64,000 nt of DNA, taken from NCBI GenBank assembly GCA_041649615.1, contig JBAZMT010000004.1, forward strand, positions 691 to 64,690, written 5' to 3'. The translations under genes and the position numbers were made by a program. Within the stretch, counting starts at the first letter, position 1. Every line of letters begins with the position of its first letter. Of this stretch, positions 18,092 to 56,553 are shown piece by piece. A model generated the notes under the pieces. It had not been told where the DNA came from, searched no databases, and saw nothing but the letters and a program-made list of their open reading frames with translations. Source of the stretch: Parcubacteria group bacterium. Its GTDB lineage: Bacteria; Patescibacteriota; Minisyncoccia; UBA6257; Colwellbacteraceae.

Positions 18092-18988
18092 TTGATGACC
18101 GCCATAGAGAAACTCCTAAAGGACTACTTTGATTACCTTCAGATAGAGAAAAACCGTTCGCCGAAGACGAAGGCGGTATATGAGAGGGCTTTAAGAAAGT
18201 TTGTGGAATTTGGAAAAATCCAAAATCCCAAAGACATTACGGACGAGCGCATCCGGAATTTCCGAGTGCATTTGGCCGAGAAGGGAGAACTTAAAAAGAA
18301 CACGCAAGGATATTATGCGATCGCCATCAGAAATTTTTTAAAATACCTGGTCAAACGCGACGTGCCGGCTTTAACACCTGAAAAAATAGAATTGCCGCAA
18401 ATGCAGAAGCGGCAGATAGAAGTAATTGAATACGGAGATTTGGAGAGGCTTCTTGAAACGCCAAAGGGAAATTCGGTGAAAGTTTTGCGCGATCGGGCGA
18501 TTTTGGAAACGCTTTTTTCGACGGGGCTTCGCGTTTCGGAACTTTGCGCTTTGGGAAGGTACATTAATACCGATCGCGGAGAAATATCGGTGAAAGGAAA
18601 AGGCGAAAAAATAAGGGTGGTCTTTTTATCGGAGAGAGCGAAAAAAGCGATAAAGGCGTATTTGGACAAACGCGATGACGCGGAAGAGGCGTTATTTATA
18701 ACGTTTACGCACGCGAAACAAGCAAAGCCGATCGGGAGAATGACGCCCCGAACGGTTGAACGGATCATAGATCACTACGCGCGCGAAGCGGGAATTCCGA
18801 AGAGTGTCCATCCGCATACTCTGCGGCATTTGTTTGCAACAGACTTGCTCATGAACGGGGCGGACTTGCGTTCGGTTCAAGAAATGCTGGGACACTCAAA
18901 CATTCAGACGACTCAAATTTACACGCACCTCACGAATAGAGAATTGAAAGACATTCACAAATCATTTCACGGAAGAAGAAGAGGATGA
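18092..18988 (+). CDS. tyrosine recombinase, XerC/XerD family
   Basis: 298 aa. N-terminal SAM-like core-binding domain and a catalytic domain with R...HPHTLRH...TQIYTHL (catalytic Tyr). Confidence 0.9.
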   Translation: MMTAIEKLLKDYFDYLQIEKNRSPKTKAVYERALRKFVEFGKIQNPKDITDERIRNFRVHLAEKGELKKNTQGYYAIAIRNFLKYLVKRDVPALTPEKIELPQMQKRQIEVIEYGDLERLLETPKGNSVKVLRDRAILETLFSTGLRVSELCALGRYINTDRGEISVKGKGEKIRVVFLSERAKKAIKAYLDKRDDAEEALFITFTHAKQAKPIGRMTPRTVERIIDHYAREAGIPKSVHPHTLRHLFATDLLMNGADLRSVQEMLGHSNIQTTQIYTHLTNRELKDIHKSFHGRRRG

Positions 18989-18994
18989 TGACTT

Positions 18995-19027
18995 CTGCCT
19001 GTACTGACACCTTGTCAGTACAGGCAG
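18995..19027. repeat. 14 bp perfect inverted repeat CTGCCTGTACTGAC-N5-GTCAGTACAGGCAG just after the recombinase stop
   Basis: Read directly from the sequence. On the plus strand it is followed by an A-run, so it is not a canonical terminator for the plus-strand gene. Confidence 0.6.
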
Positions 19028-19062
19028 AAAATAAAAAAGCGCCACGATTGAAGCGTGCGCGC
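19028..19062 (-). terminator. rho-independent terminator for the 19076..19408 minus-strand gene
   Basis: Minus strand reads GCGCACG-CTTCAAT-CGTGGCGC followed by TTTTTTATTTT. Confidence 0.55.
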
Positions 19063-19075
19063 TTGTGCAAAAAAA

Positions 19076-19408
19076 TTATTTTTCACTTGGAGTTATGAGT
19101 CCTTCGGCTTTTGATCCGTCATAGTATCCCCTAAGACGGTGCGTTCCGAAGACGGCGTTTGGATCATACAAACCGAATTGCCATTCCCAAGTATTGTGAG
19201 TCTCATGCAACAGAGTGTGGATCCACTCAACCGTGGCTCCTTGAAGAGACGTGCCCACTCCGAGTTTTGAAAGCAAAAAGATTTTTTGTTCTTCCTTCGG
19301 ACGGATGGCGAGAATAACACTACGTTGATATCGCAAGGAATCAAAAAATTGCAGGAGTGACATTCCGTAGAATGCATAGATCGGGGGTTTCGTTTCCGTG
19401 TTGCTCAT
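19076..19408 (-). CDS. hypothetical protein
   Basis: The ORF-track ORF is 19076..19471. I prefer the start at 19408 (MSNTETKPP...) because GGAGG lies 9 nt upstream. 110 aa, no recognisable family. It has its own terminator. Confidence 0.5.
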   Translation of the reverse strand: MSNTETKPPIYAFYGMSLLQFFDSLRYQRSVILAIRPKEEQKIFLLSKLGVGTSLQGATVEWIHTLLHETHNTWEWQFGLYDPNAVFGTHRLRGYYDGSKAEGLITPSEK

Positions 19409-19549
19409 AAGGCAATCCTCCTCTCCATTAGAAGTAAAAATTTTTATAGGAACTTGGTTTAGAAATAACAAGAAGATAGAGATTTTGTCAAGGGAATAAG
19501 CTCATTGATTTGCTAAAAAGGCGCGTTTATTCATAATAAATCGTATATC

Positions 19550-19630
19550 GCTCCCGTGGCGGAATGGCAGACGCGCATGGCTTAGGACCATGTTCCGAAA
19601 GGATTGGAGGTTCAAATCCTCCCGGGAGCA
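19550..19630 (+). tRNA. tRNA-Leu (anticodon TAG), type II with a long variable arm; CCA not encoded
   Basis: Acceptor stem GCTCCCG/CGGGAGC. Anticodon stem catgg/ccatg with loop cttagga. T-arm GGTTCAAATCC. Confidence 0.85.
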
Positions 19631-19671
19631 CAATTAGCCGCTTAAATGCTCGTAAAATCGGGCTTTTTACC

Positions 19672-19700
19672 TTGACAAACCGTTATTTTTATGCTATAGT
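19672..19700 (+). promoter_or_regulatory. sigma70-type promoter TTGACA-17-TATAGT upstream of the 19765 gene
   Basis: ttgaca (19672-19677), a 17 nt spacer, then tatagt (19695-19700). The AAGGAG SD and ATG follow about 50 nt downstream. Confidence 0.6.
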
Positions 19701-19764
19701 GGAGTTAGAAGATTAAAAATTTCATATAAATTTGAATTTGGAAAAAAGGAAAGGAGTCACAAAG

Positions 19765-20457
19765 ATGGGTAAGAAGAGGATTTTTGCAACCATTCTCACT
19801 GTACTGCTCGTTGTCTTCCTCGCGGTTCTCGCGGGGGTATTCACTCGGATATGGTGGACAGGATTGCTCGTAGGAGCAATCCTAACTTGGCACTTTCTCA
19901 TAAGAGGATTGAAGCAGGTGGATCTGGATCCCCCAACCCACGAATGGGAGGCCACTTTCTGTGGGAAAAGGACCGGCTATTACCTCGGCGAAGGATGGCA
20001 CTGGCTGCCGATTTTCTGTGGAGCTAAGCCGGTTGGCGGTGAAAAGAAGAAGCGCAGTTCTGACTTCATGAAAGCGAAGAAGAAAATCGGCGGATTCTTT
20101 TTAATTACAATTGCCGTCAGCCTCATTGCGAGTCTTCTTTCTGTCCCCTATCTCCTTAGCGTTGAAGCGGAAAGAGAAGCCGCCAAACCGATCATTTACG
20201 TATCGGCGGGCGAAACGAAGAACATTCGTATTCCGTCCGGCGAGTGGTCTGGAGTAATTGTAATTAGGGGAGAGCATTTCATCGCCGATCCTGACGGGAA
20301 AGTGACATACAAATTCCCGAACGATCGACAAGTCAATGATGGTCCCGGATTATATGTGAAGATGGATACGTATTATCCATACGAGAACGAAACATTCATC
20401 TTCAACACCTTTAACCGTGACCAAACCGATGTGGTTCTGACCGTATCGGTAGACTAA
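19765..20457 (+). CDS. hypothetical membrane protein (about 3 TM)
   Basis: I prefer the start at 19765 (MGKKRIF) because AAGGAG lies 7 nt upstream; the ORF-track start is 19732. Hydrophobic helices at residues 8-28, 32-50 and 105-125. The C-terminal soluble domain is of unknown family. Confidence 0.65.
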   Translation: MGKKRIFATILTVLLVVFLAVLAGVFTRIWWTGLLVGAILTWHFLIRGLKQVDLDPPTHEWEATFCGKRTGYYLGEGWHWLPIFCGAKPVGGEKKKRSSDFMKAKKKIGGFFLITIAVSLIASLLSVPYLLSVEAEREAAKPIIYVSAGETKNIRIPSGEWSGVIVIRGEHFIADPDGKVTYKFPNDRQVNDGPGLYVKMDTYYPYENETFIFNTFNRDQTDVVLTVSVD

Positions 20458-20460
20458 AAC

Positions 20461-20492
20461 AAAACCCGCAATCATATTGCGGGTTTTTTATT
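20461..20492. terminator. bidirectional rho-independent terminator between convergent genes
   Basis: aacccgcaat-catat-tgcgggtt followed by TTTTTATT. An A-run upstream serves the minus strand. Confidence 0.8.
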
Positions 20493-20503
20493 GCGTAATA
20501 TTT

Positions 20504-20776
20504 CTATACGTTGCTTCCGATGAAGTTTGATATGAGGATAGGCAAGCTCTTTGATACGATCGCGAGTGCAATACCTATGGCCGCATAAATAAGCTTGTCT
20601 TTTGCGGATTTGAGCTTGTCCGCACTGCCTGCGGCCGTTAAATAGCTGAAAGCCGCCCAAAGAAGAAAGAATACCGAAAGTGCAATAAAAACGCCGAATA
20701 CAAAATTGCCTATATTGTTTATCAGCGATTTTATTTGTTCGGGATCAGTGATATTTACTCGATCGACGTCATCCAT
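20504..20776 (-). CDS. VirB2/TrbC-like two-TM pilin-like protein (paralogue 1 of 3)
   Basis: 90 aa. TM1 (FVFGVFIALSVFFLLWAAFSYL), then TAAGSADKLKSAKDK, then TM2 (LIYAAIGIALAIVS). Same architecture as the two neighbouring genes and the N-termini of the 48465 and 49429 genes. Confidence 0.6.
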   Translation of the reverse strand: MDDVDRVNITDPEQIKSLINNIGNFVFGVFIALSVFFLLWAAFSYLTAAGSADKLKSAKDKLIYAAIGIALAIVSKSLPILISNFIGSNV

Positions 20777-20865
20777 AGTTTATTTATTGATATGTGAAAT
20801 GAATAAACGACCTTTTTGTTTTCATTATTCTGATTGTAGCAAATTCATTCGCTATTTAACAAAAA

Positions 20866-21252
20866 TTATACCGTTAAAAGATTTCTAATAACGACTTCCA
20901 CCGCTTTGGATAAAACTATGGCGGCGACTCCGACCGAGGTCCAAAGAACGGTTTTTCTTGCTTGCTTCACCTTTTCGTCATTTCCTCCGGAGGTAAGGAA
21001 AAGAAATCCGGCCCATAAATACATAAGGGCGGCAACGGGGATGACGATCCAAAGCAGACCGTTAATGATTCCGTCAATAAGAGTGGCCGGATCGCCGGCG
21101 GGAAGATTCAAAGGGTTTACGATCGTAAACGAGGGCAATCCGCTTCCGGAGTCCGAGCCTTCCCCCGCTGCGAGCGCGATACCGTGTCTAGACACCTCCA
21201 GAAATATTTTTTGGAATATTGTTTGCATACTCATATATTTTAGAATAACCAC
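20866..21252 (-). CDS. VirB2/TrbC-like two-TM pilin-like protein (paralogue 2 of 3)
   Basis: 128 aa (the start may be internal at 21234). It has an N-terminal AAGEGS leader motif, then LLWIVIPVAALMYLWAGFLFLTSGGNDEKVKQARKTVLWTSVGVAAIVLS. Confidence 0.6.
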   Translation of the reverse strand: MVILKYMSMQTIFQKIFLEVSRHGIALAAGEGSDSGSGLPSFTIVNPLNLPAGDPATLIDGIINGLLWIVIPVAALMYLWAGFLFLTSGGNDEKVKQARKTVLWTSVGVAAIVLSKAVEVVIRNLLTV

Positions 21253-21668
21253 GGCATTAAGGAAGTCGCTTCGCTCGTTAGCCCCAGTGACCTAATGACT
21301 ATGCCGATGATAACTCCCGCGCCGAGGGCGATCGCGACACCGATAACGGCGGATTTAATAAATCCCTTCCCCATACCTACGCGTTTTTCATTGCCTCCGG
21401 ACGTAAAGAGAATAAAAGCTCCCACGACGATCATTAAACCGGCTATGGGCAAAACGACCGAATAAAGAAGACCGATAACGTTGCTTACGATTTGCAAGGC
21501 GTCGCACCAGCCGACGGTACTTGCGATATTCGTGGCGCTTTGAAAACGGGAAGGGGTAATGCCTTGTCTGATATCAAACGGCGAAATCGTACATCCGGTA
21601 GTGGCAGACGATCCCTCTCCGGCCGCGTGGATGATAAACGGGGCGATTATTTTTCCGATAATGTTCAT
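21240..21668 (-). CDS. VirB2/TrbC-like two-TM pilin-like protein (paralogue 3 of 3)
   Basis: 142 aa with HAAGEGS leader motif, then LLYSVVLPIAGLMIVVGAFILFTSGGNEKRVGMGKGFIKSAVIGVAIALGAGVIIGIV. Confidence 0.6.
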   Translation of the reverse strand: MNIIGKIIAPFIIHAAGEGSSATTGCTISPFDIRQGITPSRFQSATNIASTVGWCDALQIVSNVIGLLYSVVLPIAGLMIVVGAFILFTSGGNEKRVGMGKGFIKSAVIGVAIALGAGVIIGIVIRSLGLTSEATSLMPWLF

Positions 21669-21690: not shown

Positions 21691-22899
21691 TTAGCGGAGA
21701 AGACTGTTTATGTCGGTTCCGGCTTCGGAAAGAGCTCTTGAAATGGATACTTTGTCGTCTATAACCGACTTGATCATCTCGTTAAACACCGCAAATACAC
21801 CTTCCGAGGCCGGCATATTCCAGCTTCTCGCCGTCAAAGCTTGTGAGGCGAAAACGCCAAGCGCGGGATCGTTAATGTAGTTTTCTATGAGATTTCTCAA
21901 AGCGGGCGGGCGACCGGAAGATTTTAAATAACTTTCGGCGATTGAGGGATTCGTCGTGGCATAAACGATAAATTGCCAAGAGGTCTGCTGTTCCAAGGAT
22001 TTATTAGAAACCGCGAAGCCGTAATATCTTGCCGGAACGACCGGAGAATTGACGTTGAATTGCGGTAAAGGCGCGATCGCGAAATTGGGAGTCGGATTTA
22101 ATTTTTCAAGCGTGGGCTTTAGGGATTCGTAATCAAGGATCATTCCGATCGTTCCGTTCGCAAATCCCGTGTAGGTTTCAACGGTCGGCGGTTTGATGCT
22201 CGTATAAAGTTCCAAAGCGGACGCTCCTTCGGTACCGGAGATCCTTACGAATGATTTGTTTTGGAGACTCAAATCGGCGTTCGCCTGCATCAGAAGCGCG
22301 TTTATAATGTCTCCGGAACGGGCAACGAGCGGAGCGTATCCGCCAAAGGAAGCGGTTACGCCGCGAGCGACCGCATTTTTGAACGCATCCCAAGTGTTAG
22401 GAGGAAGAGGAACGTTTCTTCGGTCTAAAACGTCTTTGTTGTAGTAGAGCGCCAACGTATCAATAAAGAGAGGAGAGGCATAAATTTGGCTTCCCGAAAT
22501 GAAGTCTTGAACGGCCACTTGAGGGAACAAATCGGAAAATCTTCCCGTAGAGATAATGGTCGTCGGCGCGGGAACCGCTTTATTCATGTGCTTTCTGATC
22601 CAGTCCGATCGGAACATAAAAATGTCCGGTCCGTTGCCCGCCGCGAGGGCGTCAATTAATTTTTGTTCGTAGGTACTTTCGGGAAATTTCTCATATTTTA
22701 TCCGCACTTCGGGACGTTCGTCGCGAAACCCTTTTATCGCCGCTGCGAAATCTTCGTCATTGTCAATTCCCCAAATAACGAGATTTACTCTTTTTTGTTC
22801 GGGTCGGATGCCGATACCTGAAAAAATAACGGCGGCAAAACCGATGACTAAAACTACGCCGACGCAGATGATGATAATCTGACTTTTGGACAGTTTCAT
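21691..22899 (-). CDS. membrane-anchored extracellular solute-binding protein (ABC transporter SBP family 1-like)
   Basis: 402 aa. N-terminal TM anchor, then a periplasmic-binding-protein-like fold (VNLVIWGIDNDEDFAAAIKGF...). No permease or ATPase genes are adjacent. Confidence 0.6.
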   Translation of the reverse strand: MKLSKSQIIIICVGVVLVIGFAAVIFSGIGIRPEQKRVNLVIWGIDNDEDFAAAIKGFRDERPEVRIKYEKFPESTYEQKLIDALAAGNGPDIFMFRSDWIRKHMNKAVPAPTTIISTGRFSDLFPQVAVQDFISGSQIYASPLFIDTLALYYNKDVLDRRNVPLPPNTWDAFKNAVARGVTASFGGYAPLVARSGDIINALLMQANADLSLQNKSFVRISGTEGASALELYTSIKPPTVETYTGFANGTIGMILDYESLKPTLEKLNPTPNFAIAPLPQFNVNSPVVPARYYGFAVSNKSLEQQTSWQFIVYATTNPSIAESYLKSSGRPPALRNLIENYINDPALGVFASQALTARSWNMPASEGVFAVFNEMIKSVIDDKVSISRALSEAGTDINSLLR

Positions 22900-22963: not shown

Positions 22964-23482
22964 CTAAAACCGATAAAGAAACAATTTAGATGCTTTATCA
23001 AATGGTTTTATAGTCTTATCGGGTATGCGATTGGGAAGAGGAGAAGAGTAAAAGACAGCTCTAGACCCCGGTTTTAATTCTTTTTCAAATTTTGTTTCTA
23101 GTCTAGATAGAGATTTTGGAGTCAAAAAACAAAAAACAACATCGGCGATAGAGAGATTATATTTATGAAGATCTCTCCAAAGAGCAGATGAATTCTTTCC
23201 AAACAAAAAACAGTTTATCTTTGACATCAACAAATGATGAGGAGAAATCTCGAGTCCGATTGCATGTGCACTAAATTCACGATCGGCAATTATCAGGGTT
23301 CTACCGTTGCCGCAGCCGAGATCCAAAAAATTTTCTTCCTTTTGAAGATCAGCTAATTTAAAAGCTTCTCTTATTATTTCTTTAGAGGACGCGAGGTAGG
23401 GAGAAGTCGTTATGGCCGCATAAACGGTTATAGTTGTCGTAAATGACAATAAAATGGCTATTAATATCCATAAGAAAATCAT
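22964..23482 (-). CDS. class I SAM-dependent methyltransferase with an N-terminal TM anchor
   Basis: 172 aa. Motif I is LDLGCGNGRTLI. Confidence 0.7.
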   Translation of the reverse strand: MIFLWILIAILLSFTTTITVYAAITTSPYLASSKEIIREAFKLADLQKEENFLDLGCGNGRTLIIADREFSAHAIGLEISPHHLLMSKINCFLFGKNSSALWRDLHKYNLSIADVVFCFLTPKSLSRLETKFEKELKPGSRAVFYSSPLPNRIPDKTIKPFDKASKLFLYRF

Positions 23483-48464: not shown

Positions 48465-49412
48465 CTAAAGAGAAGAGGGATCAAATGAGGGAGGAAAAGT
48501 AACAGCTTCAAAGACAGTGTTTGTGAAATTAGCATTCGTAAAGTTAGCGCCTGCAAAAACAGCACCTTCAAAAACTAAGCTTTCGAAGCTAGCACCTGTA
48601 AGATTGGTATTTGTAAAGTAGGTCCCTTTAAAAGTATTTCTTCCAAATTTAGCGCCAGTAAAGTCAATACCTCTAAGATCGGTTCCTCTGAGCAATACAG
48701 CACACTCTTCAGGTATAGATGAAGAACCACTTCCTCCTCCATTTTCTGGTACTTGAGCAGCGGACGCAGAGATAATTCGCGGGAATATATCAAATATTGA
48801 TGAGATGATCATATCTCCACTAACACCCGTAAGAGTAGCAGTTGAGAGATCGACTCCTTTAAAAACAACACTTGTAAATTTAGTGTTTGATAAATTGGCG
48901 TTTGTAAAGTTAGCACCTGATAAGTCCGCTTCCGTAAAACTGGTATTTGTAAATTTAGTACCTGAGAAAATGGCCCCATCAAACTCGTAACCAGTTAAAT
49001 CAGCTCCAGCTAGACTAGTACACTGTGCTGGGGGAGGAGGAAGGTTTGGAAGAATAACGTCTGGAATGGTTCCGGGTCTATCGGTAGTAGGATTGAGATT
49101 TGTACCTTCAAGGCTAGTTTCTTGTACCTTTAATACATTCGGATTGATTACGTTCAATAAAATGGCTCCGAGGGCGATTATTCCTAATCCTTTTGCGGCC
49201 GCCCAAATCCACGCGCGAGCTTCTTTTTCTCTCGTATCATTCCCACCGGCAGTGGAGTGCATAATACCTGCGAAAATTATAGTGCCTAACGCAAGAATTG
49301 CTGCAAGGCCGAGACCGACGTTAAAAATATTTACGATACCACCGGGTATAAAGCTACTTATAGCGCCGACTATGCCCGTTGGTGCTTCTTCTGCTAACGC
49401 AAGAGGAATCAT
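48465..49412 (-). CDS. fusion protein: N-terminal VirB2/TrbC-like two-TM pilin module + Pro-rich linker + C-terminal pentapeptide-repeat (beta-helix) domain
   Basis: 315 aa. N-terminal 100 aa are nearly identical in pattern to the 49429 gene (shared AWIWAAAKGL). The C-terminal half is A(D/N)LxG pentapeptide repeats. Confidence 0.7.
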   Translation of the reverse strand: MIPLALAEEAPTGIVGAISSFIPGGIVNIFNVGLGLAAILALGTIIFAGIMHSTAGGNDTREKEARAWIWAAAKGLGIIALGAILLNVINPNVLKVQETSLEGTNLNPTTDRPGTIPDVILPNLPPPPAQCTSLAGADLTGYEFDGAIFSGTKFTNTSFTEADLSGANFTNANLSNTKFTSVVFKGVDLSTATLTGVSGDMIISSIFDIFPRIISASAAQVPENGGGSGSSSIPEECAVLLRGTDLRGIDFTGAKFGRNTFKGTYFTNTNLTGASFESLVFEGAVFAGANFTNANFTNTVFEAVTFPPSFDPSSL

Positions 49413-49428
49413 ATGCTTAATTATACTT

Positions 49429-50568
49429 TTACTTGTTGTTAATACACCAGGTCATTCTTCGGTACTTCATAAAGTGACCTATTTCCGAAGACCTGACGCC
49501 TCTTCCCGCCGGGTCATTGATATACACTCTGTTCTTACTCTCGTCTATACCTTTGACTACAATGTAATGTCCTCCCAATGTAAAAATCGGAGTGCGATCA
49601 CGGGGGGTATTTTTCAACAGTTCCACTTCTTCGGCGGTTGGCGCTTTCATAAGAGCGATTACAATTCCGCCGTTTCTTAAACAGCTAGCAAGACTTCTCT
49701 GGGTGTTTGATATACCGGCGGATTTAAGTCCGTATAGCTTAGGTATGCCGATCATAGCGGCCCAAGCGGTTCCGTGATTGCAGGGTCTCCATTTATTCGC
49801 GACAATCGCATTACCCACGGTTTCTACGGCTGTTGTAGGAGTCATATACCTGTTACCGGTGAAATAGAGCATTACCATGGCGAGAGACGTCGCTCCACAA
49901 CCAGAGCTACCATAAGTTCCCGAGCAATTCGCACCGTATTTTTTACCTCCCCACGGACTGCTACCTTGCTTCAAAAGAGGAACTTCGGAATATGCGGGAG
50001 CTCCCGTGACTAAAGGCGCGCCTCCACCCCCCAAACCTGCGGAAGATAACACTTGCCACTTTGAGGTATCAGTGGGGAGAACACCAGTATTTGCTTCAAG
50101 AGCTATGTAAGAAACATTTTTATAAGCGACTTCGTCTCCTGGTAGATATGCGGTGGAAGAAGAGTATGTTCCTCTCCAACGAGCACCGGAAGGAAAAGCG
50201 GTCGGCGGAATATACCCAACGACTGGTTGAACGTTTGTCTCGGGAACGGCAAGCTCTACGAATTCCAAGTCAACGTCTTCAATAGTCGTGGCTTTTGGGT
50301 TAACTACCGAAACTATTATGAATCCGAAAGCGATAACGGCGAGTCCTTTTGCGGCCGCCCAAATCCACGCGCGAGCTTCTTTTTGCCGAGATTCATTATC
50401 TCCGGCGGTGGAATACAAAATTCCCGCAAATATTATGGTGCCCAATGCCAAAATGGCACCTATACCCAAACCGATAAAGAAAATATTGGCAATGCCGCCC
50501 GGTAAAATATCGTTAATAACGGAAACAAGACCGGGATCTTCAGCCAATGCAACCTGAATAAAACTCAT
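49429..50568 (-). CDS. fusion protein: N-terminal VirB2/TrbC-like two-TM pilin module + C-terminal Peptidase_C39-like (YvpB/BtrH-type) cysteine peptidase domain
   Basis: 379 aa. N-terminal module as in the 48465 gene. The C-terminal domain has the catalytic Cys context SSGCGATSLAMVMLYF and His context GGHYIVVKG. Confidence 0.7.
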   Translation of the reverse strand: MSFIQVALAEDPGLVSVINDILPGGIANIFFIGLGIGAILALGTIIFAGILYSTAGDNESRQKEARAWIWAAAKGLAVIAFGFIIVSVVNPKATTIEDVDLEFVELAVPETNVQPVVGYIPPTAFPSGARWRGTYSSSTAYLPGDEVAYKNVSYIALEANTGVLPTDTSKWQVLSSAGLGGGGAPLVTGAPAYSEVPLLKQGSSPWGGKKYGANCSGTYGSSGCGATSLAMVMLYFTGNRYMTPTTAVETVGNAIVANKWRPCNHGTAWAAMIGIPKLYGLKSAGISNTQRSLASCLRNGGIVIALMKAPTAEEVELLKNTPRDRTPIFTLGGHYIVVKGIDESKNRVYINDPAGRGVRSSEIGHFMKYRRMTWCINNK

Positions 50569-50576
50569 GTACTGAA

Positions 50577-52949
50577 TTATAACACTCCTCCCGAATTTTC
50601 TTCAGTCCCAGAATCCGCTTCGGCAATAATTCTCTGCGATAAAAGTTCTTCCGGGTTTGTGGTTATGATCTGATTTTCAAAAGCGGACGGAACGATCTGG
50701 ATGGCAATGTGTTTCTGTCCGACAAGGATGAGTCCTTGTCCTATATCTACGTCCACAAGATAATTCTTTTCAACTTCGGTTAAGCTAAACGCTCGCGCCA
50801 CAACGTCAATCGTGGCCGGAGATTGCTTGAGCAGAAGCTGGAGCGAAGAGTTCGTAATAACGGGACGGCCGTAAGGAGAACTCAAGAAGTCTTCCACGTC
50901 TTGGGTAATGGTCGTAATGCCAAGATAATATTTTCTGGCTCTTCTTACGAGGTTAAACAAGAAAGAGGCCGAGTCGGGATATTTCATCAAGAGCCAGGCT
51001 TCGTCTACGACCATGATTCGGCGTTTGAGTTTTGAACGGACGATATTCCAGACGTGGTTCAAGACGATATACATGGCAATTGGTCTCAACTCTTCTTCCA
51101 AATCGCGGATGGAAAAAACAATGACTCTGCTTCGGATATTTATATTCGTGGGGCGGTTGGTAAAACCGGCATAGCTGCCCTTGGTAAAGCGGTAAAGTCT
51201 TTCCGCCAACTCTTTTCCTCCTTCCATGTTTCGGAGAATGTTTTCCAAATCTTCCAATAAAGGGGGGGTCGCTTTGCCAAAATCTCTTCCTGGAGAAATA
51301 TCGTGAGAGGCATACGTTTCGTTTATGGCGCGGTCTAGGATCCCTTCTTCGGCGGGCGTAACGATTCCCACCATAAGTTTTACGAGGCCGGTAAGGCTCG
51401 CGATGTGGGATTGAAGCACCTCGGATTCGTTTTCGCCTTCGGGAACGATGGGAATTTCAAAGGGATTAATACTATCTTTAGACGTGAGAGATATCTTAAA
51501 CGTTGTTCCGCCAACCGCGTCGGCGAGCGACTGATATTCGTTCTCCGGATCAAGAATGAGAACGTCCGTTCCAAGCATGATCGATCTCAACAATTCCAGT
51601 TTTGCCGCATAAGATTTACCGGAACCGGATTTGGCGAAGATAACGGAATTGTTATTTTCAAGATCAAAGCGGTCAAATATAACAAGCGTATTGTTGTGAA
51701 GATTTAATCCGTACATTATTCCTTCATCGGTCGTTAGATCGGGCGAAATGAAAGGAAAGAAAGCCGAAGCGGGACTGGAATTCATGGCGGAAGAAATATC
51801 CATTATGTTTCGGCCGAGAGGACAAACCGAACGCCAAAGCCTGACTTGCTCAAACATAGGGGTTTTCACCGTAACGAGCGATCGCTCCAAAGTAGAGGTA
51901 ATTCTGTATTCAAGTTTCTTTAATTCTTCCAGAGAATCGGTGTAAATTGAACAATAAAAACTCACGGAGAAAAGTTTTTCTCTGGTTTGCTGGAGAGTAT
52001 CGCGAAGATTTTCCGCGTCTGCAAGAGCGGTTTCAAGAGCGGGATCTCTTATTAATCCTTTTTCTTGCCGTTCTATCATAGAGGCGGAAATGGAGGCGAC
52101 TTTTCTCGTAAGGTTTTTAAGGGCGATGCTCGTGTCGACGGGGGAAATGTGAATGGATATATCCATTAATTCCGGAAGATTGATAATCGGTTCGAGCCAA
52201 CCGGAAGAAAGATAACGCGGGTAATTCAAAACAAATAAACTTTTGACGAATTTGTCGTTGATCTTCAGATAATCGGGTTTTATCTCAATAAGTTTGGAGG
52301 AAACCGGATCCCCTTCGGGGATGGGTTCTTTTTCCGTGGTTTTTGGGTTGTAAAAATTGGCGCAGAGTTCTCTCAGTTCCGCATCATTCAGGGTCACGGC
52401 GCGGAGCCCGATGTGGCGCAATCCTTGAAGAACTTGTTCCGTCCGGAAATTGAGTTTTTCCATATGCTGCATAAGCTCTTCAACGGACATATTGGCAATT
52501 CTTTCCTCTTCTTCCCGGTGTTTTTTGCCGATGCCCGGCAGGACGGTCGGTTCAAAAGGGACGGTAACGAAAAAGCTCTTTTCAACGACGGCGTTTTCGG
52601 AAATAAAATTTTCAATGAATTTGACGTATTCGGAGAGCTGATTTTTGATAAGAGGATTTTCCTCCGTTTCCATCCGACTCTTTATGTTCTCTATGTATTC
52701 TTTGATAGCCAGGCGGCGCGAGTGAACGCTTAACTGAATGGCAAAATCAAGGGAATTAAGGAGATTCTGGAAAGCGGTAATTATGGAGTTCTGTTCTTCC
52801 TCGGATTTTAAATCCATATTAATTCCGGCGACCATAATCACTTTTCTCATGCCTCCCCTTTTAAGAAAGACGGCATCGTTTCTGATTTCCCTTACGTCCG
52901 ACAAGCTTTCGGTTGAACCAAAGGAAGTTTTAGATGGAGATTTTGGCAT
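50577..52949 (-). CDS. VirB4/TrbE/CagE-family type IV secretion ATPase
   Basis: 790 aa. N-terminal VirB4-like domain (SEEE...ITAFQNLLNSL). Walker A FAKSGSGKSYAAK, Walker B RIMVVDEAWLL. Confidence 0.85.
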   Translation of the reverse strand: MPKSPSKTSFGSTESLSDVREIRNDAVFLKRGGMRKVIMVAGINMDLKSEEEQNSIITAFQNLLNSLDFAIQLSVHSRRLAIKEYIENIKSRMETEENPLIKNQLSEYVKFIENFISENAVVEKSFFVTVPFEPTVLPGIGKKHREEEERIANMSVEELMQHMEKLNFRTEQVLQGLRHIGLRAVTLNDAELRELCANFYNPKTTEKEPIPEGDPVSSKLIEIKPDYLKINDKFVKSLFVLNYPRYLSSGWLEPIINLPELMDISIHISPVDTSIALKNLTRKVASISASMIERQEKGLIRDPALETALADAENLRDTLQQTREKLFSVSFYCSIYTDSLEELKKLEYRITSTLERSLVTVKTPMFEQVRLWRSVCPLGRNIMDISSAMNSSPASAFFPFISPDLTTDEGIMYGLNLHNNTLVIFDRFDLENNNSVIFAKSGSGKSYAAKLELLRSIMLGTDVLILDPENEYQSLADAVGGTTFKISLTSKDSINPFEIPIVPEGENESEVLQSHIASLTGLVKLMVGIVTPAEEGILDRAINETYASHDISPGRDFGKATPPLLEDLENILRNMEGGKELAERLYRFTKGSYAGFTNRPTNINIRSRVIVFSIRDLEEELRPIAMYIVLNHVWNIVRSKLKRRIMVVDEAWLLMKYPDSASFLFNLVRRARKYYLGITTITQDVEDFLSSPYGRPVITNSSLQLLLKQSPATIDVVARAFSLTEVEKNYLVDVDIGQGLILVGQKHIAIQIVPSAFENQIITTNPEELLSQRIIAEADSGTEENSGGVL

Positions 52950-52957
52950 AATATGTG

Positions 52958-53644
52958 TTATCTGTAATCAACCCTTCTTGCAGCTATCGTTTCACCGGTC
53001 GGCTTTTCTATGAGTTCATATCCTTTTGGTAATCTGGCAGAAGTCTGCTGCAAAGTCTCTTCCCTAAAAGGAATGGGCAAGGAAGTGGTAGTCATCTTAT
53101 TGAATAAGTTCTGGAGCCGAGACTTCTTTTTTTCCGGAGCCAACTCGCCGATTGGCGGGGGAGCGGGTTCAACCAAGGGGCTTACAAATACAGCGGGAGA
53201 AGGAGGTTCCATTATAGGAGGAGAGACGGGCTCAACCGGGATCATAACCGGAGGAATTTCGGTTGGGGCTTCCGGCGAGACGGGCGGCATAGCGGGAAAA
53301 CTTCCAGCTGATGGGATAGTAGCGATAGGTACTTCAGGGGAAATTGTTTCTCGAACTCTTTCTCCAATAACTTTCAATTTTAGGGCGAGAGTCTTGGGCT
53401 CCCAGAGATAACTGAAAGCTGCCGATATAAAGATAGGCATGGGGCGGCCGTTAACTTTGACGAGAGCAATAATAAGAGAACTTCCGACAAGGATGGCGGA
53501 GACGATAAGCCAAAACCAGGTTGTGAGAACGGTGAATAAAAGGAAAGATATGACAATGGCCGCTCCGACATATACAAACTGAATAAGAGTAAAAGGACCG
53601 ACAAGCTTACTCTCCGTTTCAAACTGCGGAACCTGAAACTGCAT
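52958..53644 (-). CDS. VirB3/PrgI-like small membrane protein with a Pro-rich C-terminal tail
   Basis: 228 aa. Two-TM hairpin (LIQFVYVGAAIVISFLLFTV..FWLIVSAILVGSSLIIALV). It sits directly upstream of the VirB4 homologue, as in Gram-positive T4SS loci. Confidence 0.55.
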   Translation of the reverse strand: MQFQVPQFETESKLVGPFTLIQFVYVGAAIVISFLLFTVLTTWFWLIVSAILVGSSLIIALVKVNGRPMPIFISAAFSYLWEPKTLALKLKVIGERVRETISPEVPIATIPSAGSFPAMPPVSPEAPTEIPPVMIPVEPVSPPIMEPPSPAVFVSPLVEPAPPPIGELAPEKKKSRLQNLFNKMTTTSLPIPFREETLQQTSARLPKGYELIEKPTGETIAARRVDYR

Positions 53645-53674: not shown

Positions 53675-54370
53675 TTACAAGGGCAAGTCTTTTAAATTTA
53701 GAACGTTTTCGGGGTTAACTTTTTTCGCTTTTTCTTCCGGATTAAATTCAAGACTGGCAAATGACGTCTTTTGTTGCGTTTCCGGGCTTCCTGAATAAAA
53801 CATCGGTCGCAAGGGAATTTCTCCTTGAACATTGCTTGCGGATACTTGTTCGGGAAGTTTCTCTTCGTGAATGACAAAAGGAGTGGGAGTGGCGGGTTCA
53901 CCGAGATTAGGGACAACGGGATTCATTTCGATAGGAACAGCGGGTGAAGCTTGCGCCTCCGCTAAGGCTCCTGGTGAAGTAATATTTTCAGGCACTTCTT
54001 CAGAAGAAACGGTCAAAGCAGGGTTGAAAGGAGCAATATTCTCGTCTATTGGAGCGATAACTGAAATATCAATACCGGATTCGGCGAGAGGCGCTCTTAT
54101 TGGAGTAAGGGTGGCGTTCACAAGTCTACCGACAACGGCTTCGTTTTGTTTATCCTGCGGGAGAGAAGAAAGTAATTTATTTCTGAATTCTTCGGACGGG
54201 ATATTTTTGAGAATCAGGTCAAAAATAGTATTGATTAAGGGAGCAGAGCTTTGAATATTAAATTCCTCCTGAACGGATACGATTGAGTCAATAAAACCGT
54301 CCGAATCCATCCATTGCTGAATTGTAGGATTTAATTCTTTAAAATTCATTTTTTCATGAATGTTTACCAA
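53675..54370 (-). CDS. hypothetical soluble protein within the T4SS-like cluster
   Basis: 231 aa. No TM or signal peptide. Acidic with a Pro-rich C-terminal half. Confidence 0.5.
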   Translation of the reverse strand: MVNIHEKMNFKELNPTIQQWMDSDGFIDSIVSVQEEFNIQSSAPLINTIFDLILKNIPSEEFRNKLLSSLPQDKQNEAVVGRLVNATLTPIRAPLAESGIDISVIAPIDENIAPFNPALTVSSEEVPENITSPGALAEAQASPAVPIEMNPVVPNLGEPATPTPFVIHEEKLPEQVSASNVQGEIPLRPMFYSGSPETQQKTSFASLEFNPEEKAKKVNPENVLNLKDLPL

Positions 54371-56553
54371 TCACCTTTGCCTATGTGGTAATTGACTTTA
54401 GCGTCAACACGACGATACTCACGTGTTTCATCAGCCGTTAAATGTGTTCCACCAACACCAAGTGTTCTAAGGCTAAGAGCGGCAAGTGCATTATTAATAT
54501 CTGTTTTTTCAGTGGCTGATCCTTCTTCTTTTATTTTATTGATGTCAGTGACCGAGAGAAGAAGAGCACTATCGGTCTTAGGCGTTACTCCGGAAAGATC
54601 ATCTAAAATTCTCTCTCTAACTTTATCTGCGTGTGTATGAAGTAGTTTGTTAACTTTTGTTAAGTCAGAAGCGTTAAGGGCAGACGTACCACTTAAATGA
54701 TCTAGTTTTACTTGTTTCATTGCATCTAAAACATTATTAACCACTGCCTCCGTACCATTCTCCATTATTTTAGCAACATTCTTTAGTCCGAGTTTCATTA
54801 CCATTGCCGGATCTTTAGCTATTTCGGCTCCGATATGCTGTGCATATACCTTAAATGTTTCGGAGTCCATATTTTCTGCATCTTTGTCAGAGATACCAAG
54901 AACACCAGAGGATTCTCCAAGAAGGGTGCTTGATAAGACCGTTCCTTTAACGACTCCTTTTCTAATTTCTTCGTCAGTTTTGGTTTTAATTGTCGGTTTA
55001 ACACCTACCTGGCTTAACAATGATCTAGCTCCTTTGCCTACTCCGCTTTCTGCGGGATTAAACCTAAGTCCTCTTGAAAGTCCGCTAAAAGCCGCAGCTG
55101 CGCCTTTATTTCCTTTTGCTGCAGCTGTCTTAGAAGCCATTTCGGCCATCATTTGACCTCTTTTGGCTAGGTTCTGGGCTTTACCGACTAAGAATCCGAC
55201 TCCGCCGGAAACTCCGGCCATTACCAGATTTCCGGCAACACCGCTGAATTTAGCCGTGAGAAATAACCCCATGGCGCTTATGATGATGGTAGCAATAAGC
55301 TGACCGATTGTGACAAGCCAACCGGCTTGAGTGGTGGAAACTGCGCCGGCAGAGCTAAGGTATTGTGAAGTAAAGGCAAGGAACAGAACTATAACGGGGC
55401 CAAAAAACACCCACTTGAGGAATTCTTTCCACCATCTCTCCCAGGCTAATTTCTTTAGAGGAGGAAATACGAATCCGAGCCAAATGAGAGGTGAAAAGGT
55501 GAGGAGGAGCATAAGAATAACGAATCTGATGATAAGGAAAATAGCCATAGCAAAGAAAGTAAGGGCGGCAACTACACTAATGGCAATACTTGCGTAATAG
55601 AAAAGAACGTTAGAGAGCAAGAAATTAATAAGATTGATAAAAGGCTGAATAAACAAGAGAGCTACTGCTAAAAGAGGACTTGCGATGTTTCTGGCTGCTT
55701 CTGCAGCGGTTCCACCACCAGGTATTCCGGTAATCTGGTTCGAAGCACCACCTATCTGATTCTGTATTTCACCACTGTCAACAATAGTGTTTATATCCGG
55801 GGATGAACCACTAATCACATTGCTTTGCATGAATATATTGTGTAAATGCCAGACGGTAAAATAGGTACTCATAGCGCCTGGGCAGGGAGCGGAAGCGTTA
55901 AACATTCTTTCGGTTAATGTTGTTCCTAGGCCCACAATTCCACTTGTGGCAGGAATGGTTAAATTCACCAAAGCAACGGCAACTACAAGTTTAAGAAGGA
56001 GCTTATTAACGGAAAACTCTTCTCGGCGAAGAATGGTAGCGATACCTATAACGATAATAGCCAATATGAGTCCAAGGTTTGTAATCTGAAGGATAACTTT
56101 ACCTCCATAGGTTACTAAAGGATTATTAACATTGAGGGAAAAATTTAGCGCTAGAGCCGCATTAATTAGTCCTCCGGCTAAAAGATTGAAGGCGGAAGCG
56201 ACAAGCGCTCCAATCATCGTGGTTAAGAGAAAATTTCTTATAGCTTCTATGGCTTGATCAATGGGCTCAAATATTCCACCCGGAGCGAGACTTATGCCAA
56301 AAGTAGCGGCCTCAATGCCAAATTCAAAATTCTCAAGAAAGCTTACGATAAAATCAAGACCGATAATTCCACCAAGAACAGCACTATTTGCCTGCCAAAT
56401 AGGCGATTGAAAGAAATTTATAGCGTCTGAAAATTGGGTAGTAAATATATTAGCGCATTCAGTGTTTATTGCCGGATCATCCGCTTTAGCGGTCGGCACA
56501 ATAGCCCAAATAAACATCAGGAGCAAAACAACGCTTACAACTTTGCGGAACAT
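54364..56553 (-). CDS. VirB6/TrbL-like polytopic type IV secretion membrane protein
   Basis: 729 aa. Signal peptide (…VPTAKA), at least 8 TM helices in the central region and a hydrophilic C-terminal domain of about 250 aa. Confidence 0.6.
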   Translation of the reverse strand: MFRKVVSVVLLLMFIWAIVPTAKADDPAINTECANIFTTQFSDAINFFQSPIWQANSAVLGGIIGLDFIVSFLENFEFGIEAATFGISLAPGGIFEPIDQAIEAIRNFLLTTMIGALVASAFNLLAGGLINAALALNFSLNVNNPLVTYGGKVILQITNLGLILAIIVIGIATILRREEFSVNKLLLKLVVAVALVNLTIPATSGIVGLGTTLTERMFNASAPCPGAMSTYFTVWHLHNIFMQSNVISGSSPDINTIVDSGEIQNQIGGASNQITGIPGGGTAAEAARNIASPLLAVALLFIQPFINLINFLLSNVLFYYASIAISVVAALTFFAMAIFLIIRFVILMLLLTFSPLIWLGFVFPPLKKLAWERWWKEFLKWVFFGPVIVLFLAFTSQYLSSAGAVSTTQAGWLVTIGQLIATIIISAMGLFLTAKFSGVAGNLVMAGVSGGVGFLVGKAQNLAKRGQMMAEMASKTAAAKGNKGAAAAFSGLSRGLRFNPAESGVGKGARSLLSQVGVKPTIKTKTDEEIRKGVVKGTVLSSTLLGESSGVLGISDKDAENMDSETFKVYAQHIGAEIAKDPAMVMKLGLKNVAKIMENGTEAVVNNVLDAMKQVKLDHLSGTSALNASDLTKVNKLLHTHADKVRERILDDLSGVTPKTDSALLLSVTDINKIKEEGSATEKTDINNALAALSLRTLGVGGTHLTADETREYRRVDAKVNYHIGKGDW

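Follow-up and report, generated by a model that had tools for sequence, protein, structure and literature searches.

What are three short membrane proteins, encoded one behind the other, made for in a Parcubacteria group bacterium, and what does the gene of a sugar-binding-type protein do in front of them? In our opinion, it is quite probable that this MalE-like solute-binding protein (SBP) and three VirB2/TrbC-type pilins of the Pfam family PF18895 come from one operon and serve the pilus or conduit of a type IV secretion system (T4SS). Two rather different machines had been proposed for the three proteins, a T4SS-like one and a PilB-type one.

The locus

The window is the whole stretch of DNA that was analysed, 64,000 nucleotides long. 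It is chromosomal DNA in a MAG of an ultrasmall, Paceibacteria-type member of the Parcubacteria (Patescibacteria/CPR). A sequence-only reading of it had placed three minus-strand open reading frames of 90, 128 and 142 aa next to a strong bidirectional terminator, followed by the gene of a membrane-anchored SBP. All three frames are indeed present, and so is the terminator; the SBP is membrane-anchored as proposed, but its gene precedes the pilin genes in the order of transcription. The features are as follows (an arrow within a sequence marks the presumed cut):

21691..22899, minus strand: MalE-like membrane-anchored SBP, 402 aa, SBP_bac_8/1; first gene of the operon
21240..21668, minus strand: position-1 pilin p142, 142 aa; leader, Cys-bearing outer segment, helical hairpin, C-terminal LMPWLF
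20866..21252, minus strand: position-2 pilin p128, 128 aa from a GTG start; leader end ALA↓AGEGS, NPL motif, helical hairpin
20833..20862, minus strand: promoter-like site TTGTTA-18-TACAAT, with TG, in the 89-nt gap before the 90-aa gene; from a consensus scan only
20504..20776, minus strand: position-3 pilin p90, 90 aa; the simplest hairpin, leaderless in this genome
20461..20487, either strand: bidirectional intrinsic terminator; 12-bp stem, 3-nt loop, A-run upstream, T-run downstream
19732-20457: convergent gene, at whose end stands the same terminator as at the end of p90

The four genes, SBP, p142, p128 and p90, form an operon. The SBP gene and p142 are 22 nt apart, p142 and p128 are separated by 5 nt, 89 nt lie 5' of p90, and a single terminator closes the array after p90. 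The promoter-like site in the last gap is weak evidence, because the region has no more such sites than chance would give. The GTG start of p128 at 21252 is probably too long: public gene calls use ATG starts (120 aa according to NCBI, 122 aa according to other callers) and the orthologues align to M9. A start at the ATG at 21234 or 21228, giving 122 or 120 aa, is thus more likely.

Hairpins, loops and leaders

The layout of one transmembrane segment, a basic loop and a second transmembrane segment, which had been read from the letters, is borne out by hydropathy, by the charge of the loop and by the helical hairpins of AF2 models. In p90, p128 and p142 alike, two hydrophobic segments flank a loop of net charge +2, while the N-terminal tails are net negative by charge count. 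The loops read TAAGSADKLK, TSGGNDEKVK and TSGGNEKRVG, and sequence alignments give them the basic consensus T(S/A)(G/A)G(N/S)..K/R. The models place helices at 12-47 and 52-88 in p90 (pLDDT 82) and at 47-78 and 84-119 in p128 (pLDDT 80.7). p142 carries in addition an outer segment of about 43 aa with two cysteines, C26 and C55; its orthologues P0174, L003 and L006 share both cysteines as well as an LMPW(L)F tail.

The motif AAGEGS had been suggested as a processing site. It does occur in p128 and p142, right behind ALA and IHA respectively, that is at a cleavage site of the AxA type, and the leader of p142, ending in IHA↓AGEGS, is 15 aa long. However, the motif itself is not conserved, as orthologues bear other residues past an AxA-like site (IIWA↓SGQS, TVSA↓SHER, VLA↓DVTG, AIA↓DTTG); a conserved processing motif is thereby ruled out. 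At the DNA level the two copies of AAGEGS agree in 13 of 18 bases, which rules out a recent gene conversion. Whether these leaders are cleaved is uncertain, because they are short and weakly hydrophobic and do not resemble the classical Sec signal peptides that most PF18895 relatives bear. p90 has no leader, though its orthologues do. A signal peptidase gene was not found within the window.

Family of the three small proteins

The genes of p90, p128 and p142 are real and encode VirB2-like proteins of the conjugative pilin type. The Pfam model T4SS_pilin (PF18895), whose gathering score is 26.6 bits, is exceeded by all three: 41.5 bits for p90 (E = 1.4e-10), 36.9 bits for p128 (E = 3.8e-9) and 29.8 bits for p142 (E = 6.6e-7). 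Public precomputed annotation also assigns this family to them, and the model matches 38/38 aligned relatives. The related TrbC/VirB2 model PF04956 matches 19/38 of these relatives at E <= 0.01, with a best value of 3.4e-8; here it gives p90 24.3 bits, below its cutoff of 27.9, and does not match p128 or p142. NCBIfam NF045849, built for a pilin-like protein of Mycoplasma integrative elements (ICE), scores p90 at 27.7 bits and p128 at 22.1 bits, short of its 40-bit cutoff, with E-values of 1.6e-6 to 4e-4 across p90, p128 and a 379-aa fusion protein described below; p142 is not matched. By exhaustive profile search the PF18895-type family counts 51,480 representatives at 50% identity. It is visible only by such a search, a word-indexed search with p128 alone returning 3 proteins.

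Could this likeness simply be one of hydrophobic composition among generic two-helix membrane proteins? The pairwise identity of the three is low, 18-31%, and there are weak Pfam matches to unrelated small membrane families. However, we give this explanation next to no credence. Apart from the curated models, which independently score all three above threshold, leave-one-out HMMs pick each omitted module as the best non-training match among 734 six-frame open reading frames, whereas the other membrane proteins encoded in the window, YidC and VirB6 among them, receive no score, and position-specific orthologues are known in 21 genomes. The modules thus share more than hydrophobicity, the point for which an alignment had been proposed as a check. 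The possibility that the three belong to a PilB-dependent type IV pilus, which the sequence-only reading had left as an option, is practically negligible. The window does hold a gene for a PilB-like T2SSE ATPase at 38713-40017. But the class III signal peptide G↓F(T/S)L(I/L)E is absent from all three proteins, the back-translated prepilin motif is no commoner in the window than expected by chance, two helices with a basic loop are not the single N-terminal hydrophobic helix with a globular head of type IV pilins, and Pfam assigns T4SS_pilin to every one of them. The sequences thus contradict a type IV pilin identity. Neither a prepilin peptidase (Peptidase_A24), which had been named as something to look for, nor PilC or PilM is among the annotated open reading frames of the window. 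The PilB-like gene stands alone between ruvB and yebC/ruvC.

A profile of 38 relatives has only chance-level matches in the PDB and no solved relative at E <= 10, and Foldseek returns nothing significant, with VirB2 of the T-pilus (8exh_A) at rank 18 and E = 3.6. A helical hairpin is a fold of low information.

The secretion machine in the same window

The module of the small pilins had also been seen at the N-termini of two fusion proteins near a T4SS-like cluster. An HMM made from the three small pilins recovers both of these N-termini (E = 1.7e-5 and 2.7e-4), and no further pilin module in the window besides these five. The genes concerned are:

48465..49412, minus strand: pilin module with pentapeptide repeats, 315 aa (Pentapeptide E = 1.6e-29); module recovered by the HMM
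49429..50568, minus strand: pilin module with papain-like Peptidase_C39_2, 379 aa (C39_2 E = 2e-15); 21.5 bits with T4SS_pilin, below cutoff, module recovered by the HMM
50577..52949, minus strand: VirB4 ATPase, 790 aa; 404.9 bits with NF045971 conju_CD1110 against a cutoff of 325, Pfam P-loop_TraG
52958..53644, minus strand: PrgI/VirB3-like protein, 228 aa (Pfam PrgI E = 3e-4, below cutoff)
54364..56553, minus strand: VirB6/TrbL-like polytopic membrane protein, 729 aa (Pfam TrbL E = 1.5e-4, below cutoff)

The genes for VirB4 and for the VirB6-like and PrgI-like proteins adjoin dnaA, dnaN, rnpA, yidC and ksgA, and such a T4SS core beside dnaA has been described as typical of Paceibacteria (PMC12102498). 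They are 27-35 kb from the pilin locus; measured from there, the nearer fusion gene lies 26.8 kb away and VirB4 28.9 kb. The pilin paralogues have their module in common with the two fusion proteins and belong with this cluster. No relaxase or coupling protein was seen within the window. The same order, with PrgI, an uncharacterised gene and VirB4, recurs at locus L062.

The same operon in other genomes

A same-strand pilin array lies downstream of the SBP gene in 70/76 species-level loci and upstream of it in 1/63 (Fisher p = 3e-31 for downstream against upstream), an order far commoner than any other neighbour of the SBP in the loci compared. The SBP gene is therefore no bystander but a conserved one that opens the operon. 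At L062, the genes for SBP, a pilin, a di-pilin, PrgI, one uncharacterised protein and VirB4 are contiguous on a single strand, a physical link between such an operon and the T4SS. Best matches between pilins of different loci fall on the same position of the array in 60/63 cases; each pilin of the triad represents an ancient orthologous type, specific to its position and conserved across many species, and this contradicts the earlier idea of a pool of alternative subunits. Relatives of other build exist as well: fusions of a pilin to a VirB1-like SLT domain within the arrays of L044, L050, L071 and L073, an M23-like protein (P0137) bearing the pilin module, and polypeptides of 2-17 pilin modules.

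The SBP matches SBP_bac_8 (E = 8e-23) and SBP_bac_1 (E = 9e-21) above cutoff, it has a hydrophobic N-terminal anchor at residues 1-34, and among solved structures trehalose/maltose-binding proteins come closest to it. In 80 loci, no gene for an ABC permease or ATPase is a recurrent neighbour at distances of up to 6 kb from the SBP gene. A methyltransferase gene lies upstream of it in 34 loci and in the window; the methyltransferases of those loci have no detectable orthology to the one here, and we leave this neighbour as coincidence or unexplained.

Known systems and their differences

Tandem arrays of VirB2-like genes in Patescibacteria are published, so the triad is an array of an already known sort. 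A VirB2 array has been defined as 2-11 pilin genes of low identity, in tandem or one non-pilin gene apart, in a genome with VirB4, and 441 of them have been listed, with about 25% identity (PMC12102498). The locus described here has three adjacent genes of 18-31% identity and a VirB4 gene in the genome. As in the published arrays (Quinonero-Coronel et al. 2025, PMC12102498; Wang et al. 2023, PMC10633639), we find divergent tandem PF18895 genes and a chromosomal MPF-FATA-like T4SS (VirB4, VirB6, PrgI) beside dnaA. However, the array here is about 27 kb outside the neighbourhood of virB4, whereas that of Saccharibacteria is part of the cluster; at the head of the present array stands the gene of a MalE-like SBP, of which neither article makes mention; and the triad is position-specific and conserved, whereas the published arrays are called 'highly variable'.

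With the TrbC/VirB2 pilins of diderm T4SSs, such as those of the A. tumefaciens T-pilus (PDB 8exh), the proteins have in common their small size, in p142 and p128 a short putative leader, two hydrophobic helices with a short basic loop, and a partner machine with VirB4 and VirB6. They differ in that the host is a monoderm without the VirB7-10 outer-membrane complex, that there is no sign here of head-to-tail cyclisation or of a TraF-like peptidase, and that they are below the PF04956 cutoff or unmatched, without a significant match to solved pilins. The Mycoplasma ICE proteins Mbov_0395 and MMCAP2_0565 (NF045849) are likewise hairpin proteins, of about 80 aa, beside a VirB4 of the MPF-FATA type; they belong to a wall-less monoderm and are single copies in a mobile element, in contrast to a chromosomal triad, and the scores with their model are 20-28 bits here, under the 40-bit cutoff. 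Finally, the bindosome of Sulfolobus (BasABC, PMC3047682) links a sugar-binding-type surface protein with three small pilin-like proteins. This is an analogy only: the Bas proteins resemble type IV pilins, carry class III signal peptides and use a PilB/PilC-type machine, whereas in our case VirB2-like proteins go with a T4SS.

Filament, channel or capture structure

If the three proteins are VirB2-like, they may nevertheless form no filament and stay in the membrane or envelope as channel parts, anchors or carriers of the T4SS. We regard this as unlikely, though it deserves to be taken seriously. The pilin module does act as the N-terminal anchor of enzymes and other proteins (Peptidase_C39_2, pentapeptide, SLT, M23-like P0137), polypeptides of 2-17 modules would not easily find a place in a regular helical pilus, and pili are generally absent from monoderm MPF-FATA systems (PMC12102498, PMC12857230). 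On the other hand, ordered triads of small single-module proteins recall subunit sets with major and minor members, there is homology between the family and TrbC/VirB2, and reviews regard the T4SSs of Patescibacteria as potentially piliated (PMC12857230). It is still less probable, in our opinion, that SBP and hairpin proteins make up a structure for capture or uptake of host glycans, which would resemble the bindosome in function and have but a loose connection with T4SS secretion. The steady order of SBP and pilins in 70/76 loci, the lack of a recurrent ABC permease or ATPase beside the SBP, and the fact that sugar-binding proteins of Sulfolobus need small pilin-like proteins in order to be assembled on the cell surface (PMC3047682) would agree with it. 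However, the bindosome is not built with VirB2-like proteins, the array of L062 continues straight into PrgI and VirB4, most PF18895 arrays elsewhere in Patescibacteria are without an SBP and those of Saccharibacteria are inside T4SS clusters (PMC10633639), and conserved gene order by itself is no proof of physical interaction.

We thus keep to an SBP-led operon of VirB2-like pilins serving a T4SS pilus or conduit, which might work as follows. The pilins would insert in the membrane with N-terminus out, loop in and C-terminus out, as the net +2 loops and the acidic N-tails suggest. p142 and p128 may shed their short leaders at the AxA site (IHA↓A, ALA↓A) through type I signal peptidase, and the leaderless p90 may enter the membrane through YidC/Sec. 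The VirB4-VirB6-PrgI machine beside dnaA would then pull the hairpins out of the membrane, and the extracted hairpins would polymerise into a conjugative-type pilus or an envelope-spanning conduit for contact with the host cell. Polymerisation into a pilus we infer from homology; the literature found contains no report of a pilus built from these proteins in any Parcubacteria. The three types would hold different fixed roles, with p90 as candidate bulk subunit and p142, with its extra Cys-containing outer segment, as candidate minor or specialised subunit, and the SBP would act together with the pilus or conduit.

Implications

The pilins themselves add nothing new, for PF18895 arrays are catalogued across Patescibacteria. 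In S. epibionticum, the only species open to genetic work, the cells cannot do without their pilin array (PMC10633639), and in Patescibacteria enrichment cultures T4SS pilins rank among the highest-expressed genes that have no known function (PMC10936435). What had not been reported is that the array belongs to an operon of wide conservation, whose leading gene encodes a surface protein of the sugar-binding type; our literature search found no link between SBP and pilins in CPR bacteria. Hitherto, the multiplicity of pilins has been put down to variation that serves host range or immune evasion. The position-specific triad could matter here: for this lineage at least, it points instead to a heteromeric structure in which each type has its fixed role.

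A sugar-binding-type lead gene in about 70 species, together with contiguity to PrgI and VirB4 in at least one genome, could matter as well. No adhesin has so far been found for the Patescibacterial T4SS (PMC12102498), and the SBP is a concrete candidate for its missing host-recognition or nutrient-capture component. More speculatively, and we hold this to be possible but rather doubtful, the SBP and the ordered triad of Paceibacteria-type Patescibacteria may be one ancient functional T4SS module, with the SBP on or near the pilus as a glycan adhesin or a device for capturing host sugars, and with the pilin module anchoring hydrolases (C39-like, SLT, M23) to the same machine. If true, the bindosome of archaea would have a counterpart in bacteria, built on a T4SS.

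The three genes and their family

The three minus-strand genes described in the sequence-only reading do exist, as do the terminator and the anchored solute-binding protein (SBP) on either side of them:

20461-20487, terminator, a palindrome
20504-20776 (-), p90, ORF of 90 aa
20866-21252 (-), p128, ORF of 128 aa when a GTG is taken as start
21240-21668 (-), p142, ORF of 142 aa
21691-22899 (-), SBP, anchored, MalE-like

The start of the middle gene is most likely the ATG at 21234 or 21228; its orthologues align to this methionine, and the lengths in public annotations are 122 and 120 aa. Proteins identical to all three are on record in a 'Parcubacteria group bacterium' MAG (WC565_02255, WC565_02260, WC565_02265) and in two other assemblies. 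Each has two hydrophobic segments separated by a short loop (TAAGSADKLK, TSGGNDEKVK, TSGGNEKRVG). Net charge is +2 in the loops and negative in the N-terminal tails; AlphaFold2 predicts two-helix hairpins for the 120-aa protein (mean pLDDT 80.7) and the 90-aa protein (82.3). Hydropathy, charge and models bear out the order TM1, basic loop, TM2 that had been noted.

By profile score, all three belong to Pfam PF18895, T4SS_pilin (p90 41.5, p128 36.9 and p142 29.8 bits; curated threshold 26.6). An HMM built from five modules, these three and the N-termini of the two fusion proteins at 48465-50568, retrieved nothing but these five when run against the window's 734 six-frame ORFs. With each module left out in turn, the omitted one was always the top non-training match, and no score was obtained for other membrane proteins of the window, YidC and the VirB6-like protein among them. 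Training on the small proteins picks up both fusion N-termini (E = 1.7e-5 and 2.7e-4), and training on the fusions picks up the small proteins, so the claim of one shared module holds. Given the Pfam scores and these HMM results, the modules align beyond mere hydrophobicity and are not generic two-TM proteins. The family is large: an exhaustive profile search gave 51,480 cluster representatives (E <= 0.001).

The array as first described is ordinary, since such arrays are already known. When PF18895 and PF04956 were run against 3,035 Patescibacteria genomes, VirB2-like pilins turned up in 1,948 VirB4-containing assemblies, close to virB4 in only 1,135 of these; 441 arrays were recorded, each of 2-11 pilin genes, at a mean identity of ~25% (PMC12102498). 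Southlakia epibionticum cannot grow epibiotically without its pilin array (Wang et al., PMC10633639). In enrichment cultures of Patescibacteria, T4SS pilins rank with the most strongly expressed of the genes whose function is unknown (PMC10936435), and these systems feature prominently in a review from 2025 (PMC12857230).

Which kind of pilin

PF18895 is matched by 38 of 38 aligned relatives, and PF04956 (TrbC) by 19 of the 38 (best E = 3.4e-8). In the window p90 alone comes near PF04956, with 24.3 bits against a cutoff of 27.9; on these scores the window proteins are not strict members. In NCBIfam, matches to the 'Mbov_0395 pilin-like conjugal transfer protein' of Mycoplasma ICEs stay below threshold. 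A sequence search against solved structures returned no relative, and Foldseek no significant match for the p128 or p90 model; among its non-significant ranks are T-pilus VirB2 (8exh_A, rank 18, E = 3.6) and the Aeropyrum conjugation pilus (8dfu, rank 26 for p128 and 40 for p90). The modelled hairpin is compatible with VirB2, yet too simple to be diagnostic.

Type IV pilin identity was considered and rejected, a class III signal peptide being absent from all three proteins. A back-translated GFTLIE pattern occurs in the window at chance frequency, and no prepilin peptidase was found among its annotated ORFs. A PilB-like T2SSE ATPase (38713-40017, minus strand, E = 3e-115) lies between ruvB and yebC/ruvC, and the window holds no other type IV pilus gene. 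We therefore give up the assignment to a PilB system; what stands of the sequence-only reading is that these are paralogues of a T4SS-type pilin module, and an interchangeable pool is not favoured either, as the next section explains.

Three probably fixed roles, and the leaders

In 21 loci the array consists of three single-module pilins and no more; there the best cross-locus match falls at the equal array position in 60 of 63 cases. Orthologues from one array position share 48-58% identity, against 18-29% between paralogues. Each position also has its own features: position 1 (p142 type) has conserved cysteines ahead of helix 1 and a C-terminus that contains PW, in many cases with a Cys after it, position 2 (p128 type) an NPL motif, and position 3 (p90 type) the shortest protein. 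Because orthology and features are position-specific, the sequences point to three fixed roles rather than to subunits that are interchangeable or vary antigenically.

Many position-1 pilins (L012, L014, L017, L020, L025, L036, L046) have an N-terminal GLVPCG..C..C and a C-terminal PW..C, a pattern that suggests disulfides linking both outer ends, possibly a non-covalent-backbone counterpart of VirB2/TrbC cyclisation. In p142 of the window, just two N-terminal Cys are retained.

Most relatives have classical signal peptides. The leaders of p142 (MNIIGKIIAPFIIHA|AGEGS) and p128 (MQTIFQKIFLEVSRHGIALA|AGEGS) are short and weakly hydrophobic, with an AxA-type site at the end. The suggestion that AAGEGS may be a processing site is plausible as to place: it plausibly marks a type I signal-peptidase site, where cleavage would occur. 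It is no recognition motif, since the hexapeptide is not conserved in orthologues (IIWA|SGQS, TVSA|SHER, VLA|DVTG, AIA|DTTG); its two DNA copies share 13 of 18 bases. p90 is leaderless, though its orthologues do carry leaders, and its acidic N-tail (24 residues, net -3) would suit YidC-type insertion. The 89-nt gap 5' of p90 (20777-20865), identical in three independent assemblies, holds two tiny out-of-frame ORFs, MNLLQSE* and MKTKRSFIHFTYQ*, which may be relics of a lost p90 leader.

A conserved operon led by the SBP

In minus-strand order the operon runs SBP, 22-nt gap, p142, 5-nt gap, p128, 89-nt gap with a promoter-like site, p90, terminator. The anchored binding protein, rightly recognised before, is thus the lead gene and not a trailing one. 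Its closest solved relatives are trehalose/maltose-binding proteins, and the order gyrA, SBP, three pilins recurs in two related contigs.

A pilin-independent search with an SBP alignment, one genome per species, gave 80 loci (SBP identity 29-61%) from Wolfe-, Colwell-, Lipton-, Jorgensen-, Harrison-, Moran-, Magasanikbacteria and other Patescibacteria. Where at least 600 bp of downstream sequence was available, 70 of 76 loci have a same-strand array of 1-10 T4SS_pilin modules 3' of the SBP (first module within 300 bp in 49 and within 1 kb in 65), against 1 of 63 with modules upstream (Fisher exact test, p = 3e-31). Other window neighbours are kept less often (of 80: GyrA 37, LactB3 27, S1 26, PNPase 25, XerC 17), and no ABC permease or ATPase recurs near the SBP. 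We found no mention of this linkage in PMC12102498 or the other literature searched.

Several observations concern the surroundings. A class I SAM methyltransferase lies directly 5' of the SBP in the window (22964-23482, minus strand) and at 34 of the 80 loci; no orthology was detected between the membrane-anchored window protein and those. In one Wolfebacteria locus (L013:7159-9571) one same-strand pilin comes after the SBP, and then five pilin genes that run convergently from the other strand, so that the array is present in an inverted form. For some SBP-pilin loci (L008, L010-L012, L021, L037, L042, L043 and others) the MAG bears the label Saccharibacteria, Bdellovibrionales, Pseudobdellovibrionaceae or Spirochaetia; as their gene content resembles Paceibacteria-type Patescibacteria, these contigs are probably misbinned or mislabelled. 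Between the pilin operon and rpsO/PNPase (18092-20457) lie:

18092-18988, XerC-like integrase
19550-19631 (+), tRNA-Leu
two ORFs of 131 and 241 aa, without family match

The two ORFs are missing from relatives L003 and L004, which makes this a small variable segment, possibly integrated.

The secretion machine and the competing explanations

The T4SS core and the fusions adjoin ksgA, yidC, jag, rnpA, dnaA and dnaN, the same neighbourhood as reported for Paceibacteria T4SSs (Quinonero-Coronel et al., PMC12102498):

54364-56553 (-), VirB6/TrbL-like protein
(-), unknown protein of 231 aa
52958-53644 (-), PrgI/VirB3-like protein
50577-52949 (-), VirB4 (NCBIfam conju_CD1110, 404.9 bits, cutoff 325)
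48465-50568 (-), two pilin-module fusions (Peptidase_C39_2; pentapeptide repeats)

Judged by sequence, the module recurs as an N-terminal carrier of cell-wall enzymes (C39_2, SLT, M23-like). An SLT lytic transglycosylase follows it in L044:6676-7842, L050:6968-8155, L071:2260-3363 and L073:9813-10886, and an M23-like peptidase in P0137; pentapeptide repeats and Cys-rich domains are further partners. Fusions of this kind may provide what PMC12102498 notes as the 'missing VirB1' function. There are also predicted 'polypilins', single polypeptides in which 2 to 17 T4SS_pilin modules stand in tandem, joined by repeated linkers, SF(G/D)IP for example (P0004, 606 aa; P0126, 1775 aa; L052:7216-8388; L063:2383-3504; many profile-search matches); they might be cut into units or be gene-call read-throughs.

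In our opinion it is probable that the three proteins are pilin-like subunits of the VirB2 type whose genes are expressed together with that of a surface binding protein; the subunits would enter the membrane as hairpins and be handled by the dnaA-proximal VirB4/VirB6/PrgI machine to give a pilus or conduit for host contact. The main competitor, which we regard as unlikely, is that the same proteins are membrane or envelope components or anchors that never form filaments; it draws some weight from the many proteins in which the module is an N-terminal anchor for a hydrolase, from the multi-module polypeptides and from the lack of an observed pilus. In a Moranbacteria UBA1362 locus (L062:5240-12815), methyltransferase, SBP, pilin, di-pilin, PrgI, an unknown gene and VirB4 follow one another on one strand. 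By this contiguity the SBP-led array is physically joined to the T4SS core, and the two loci that lie apart in the window make up one operon there. A bindosome-like arrangement centred on the SBP seems to us quite improbable, gene order being the one argument in its favour.

The conserved operon of SBP and pilin triad is a modestly new by-product of this analysis, and it deserves attention.
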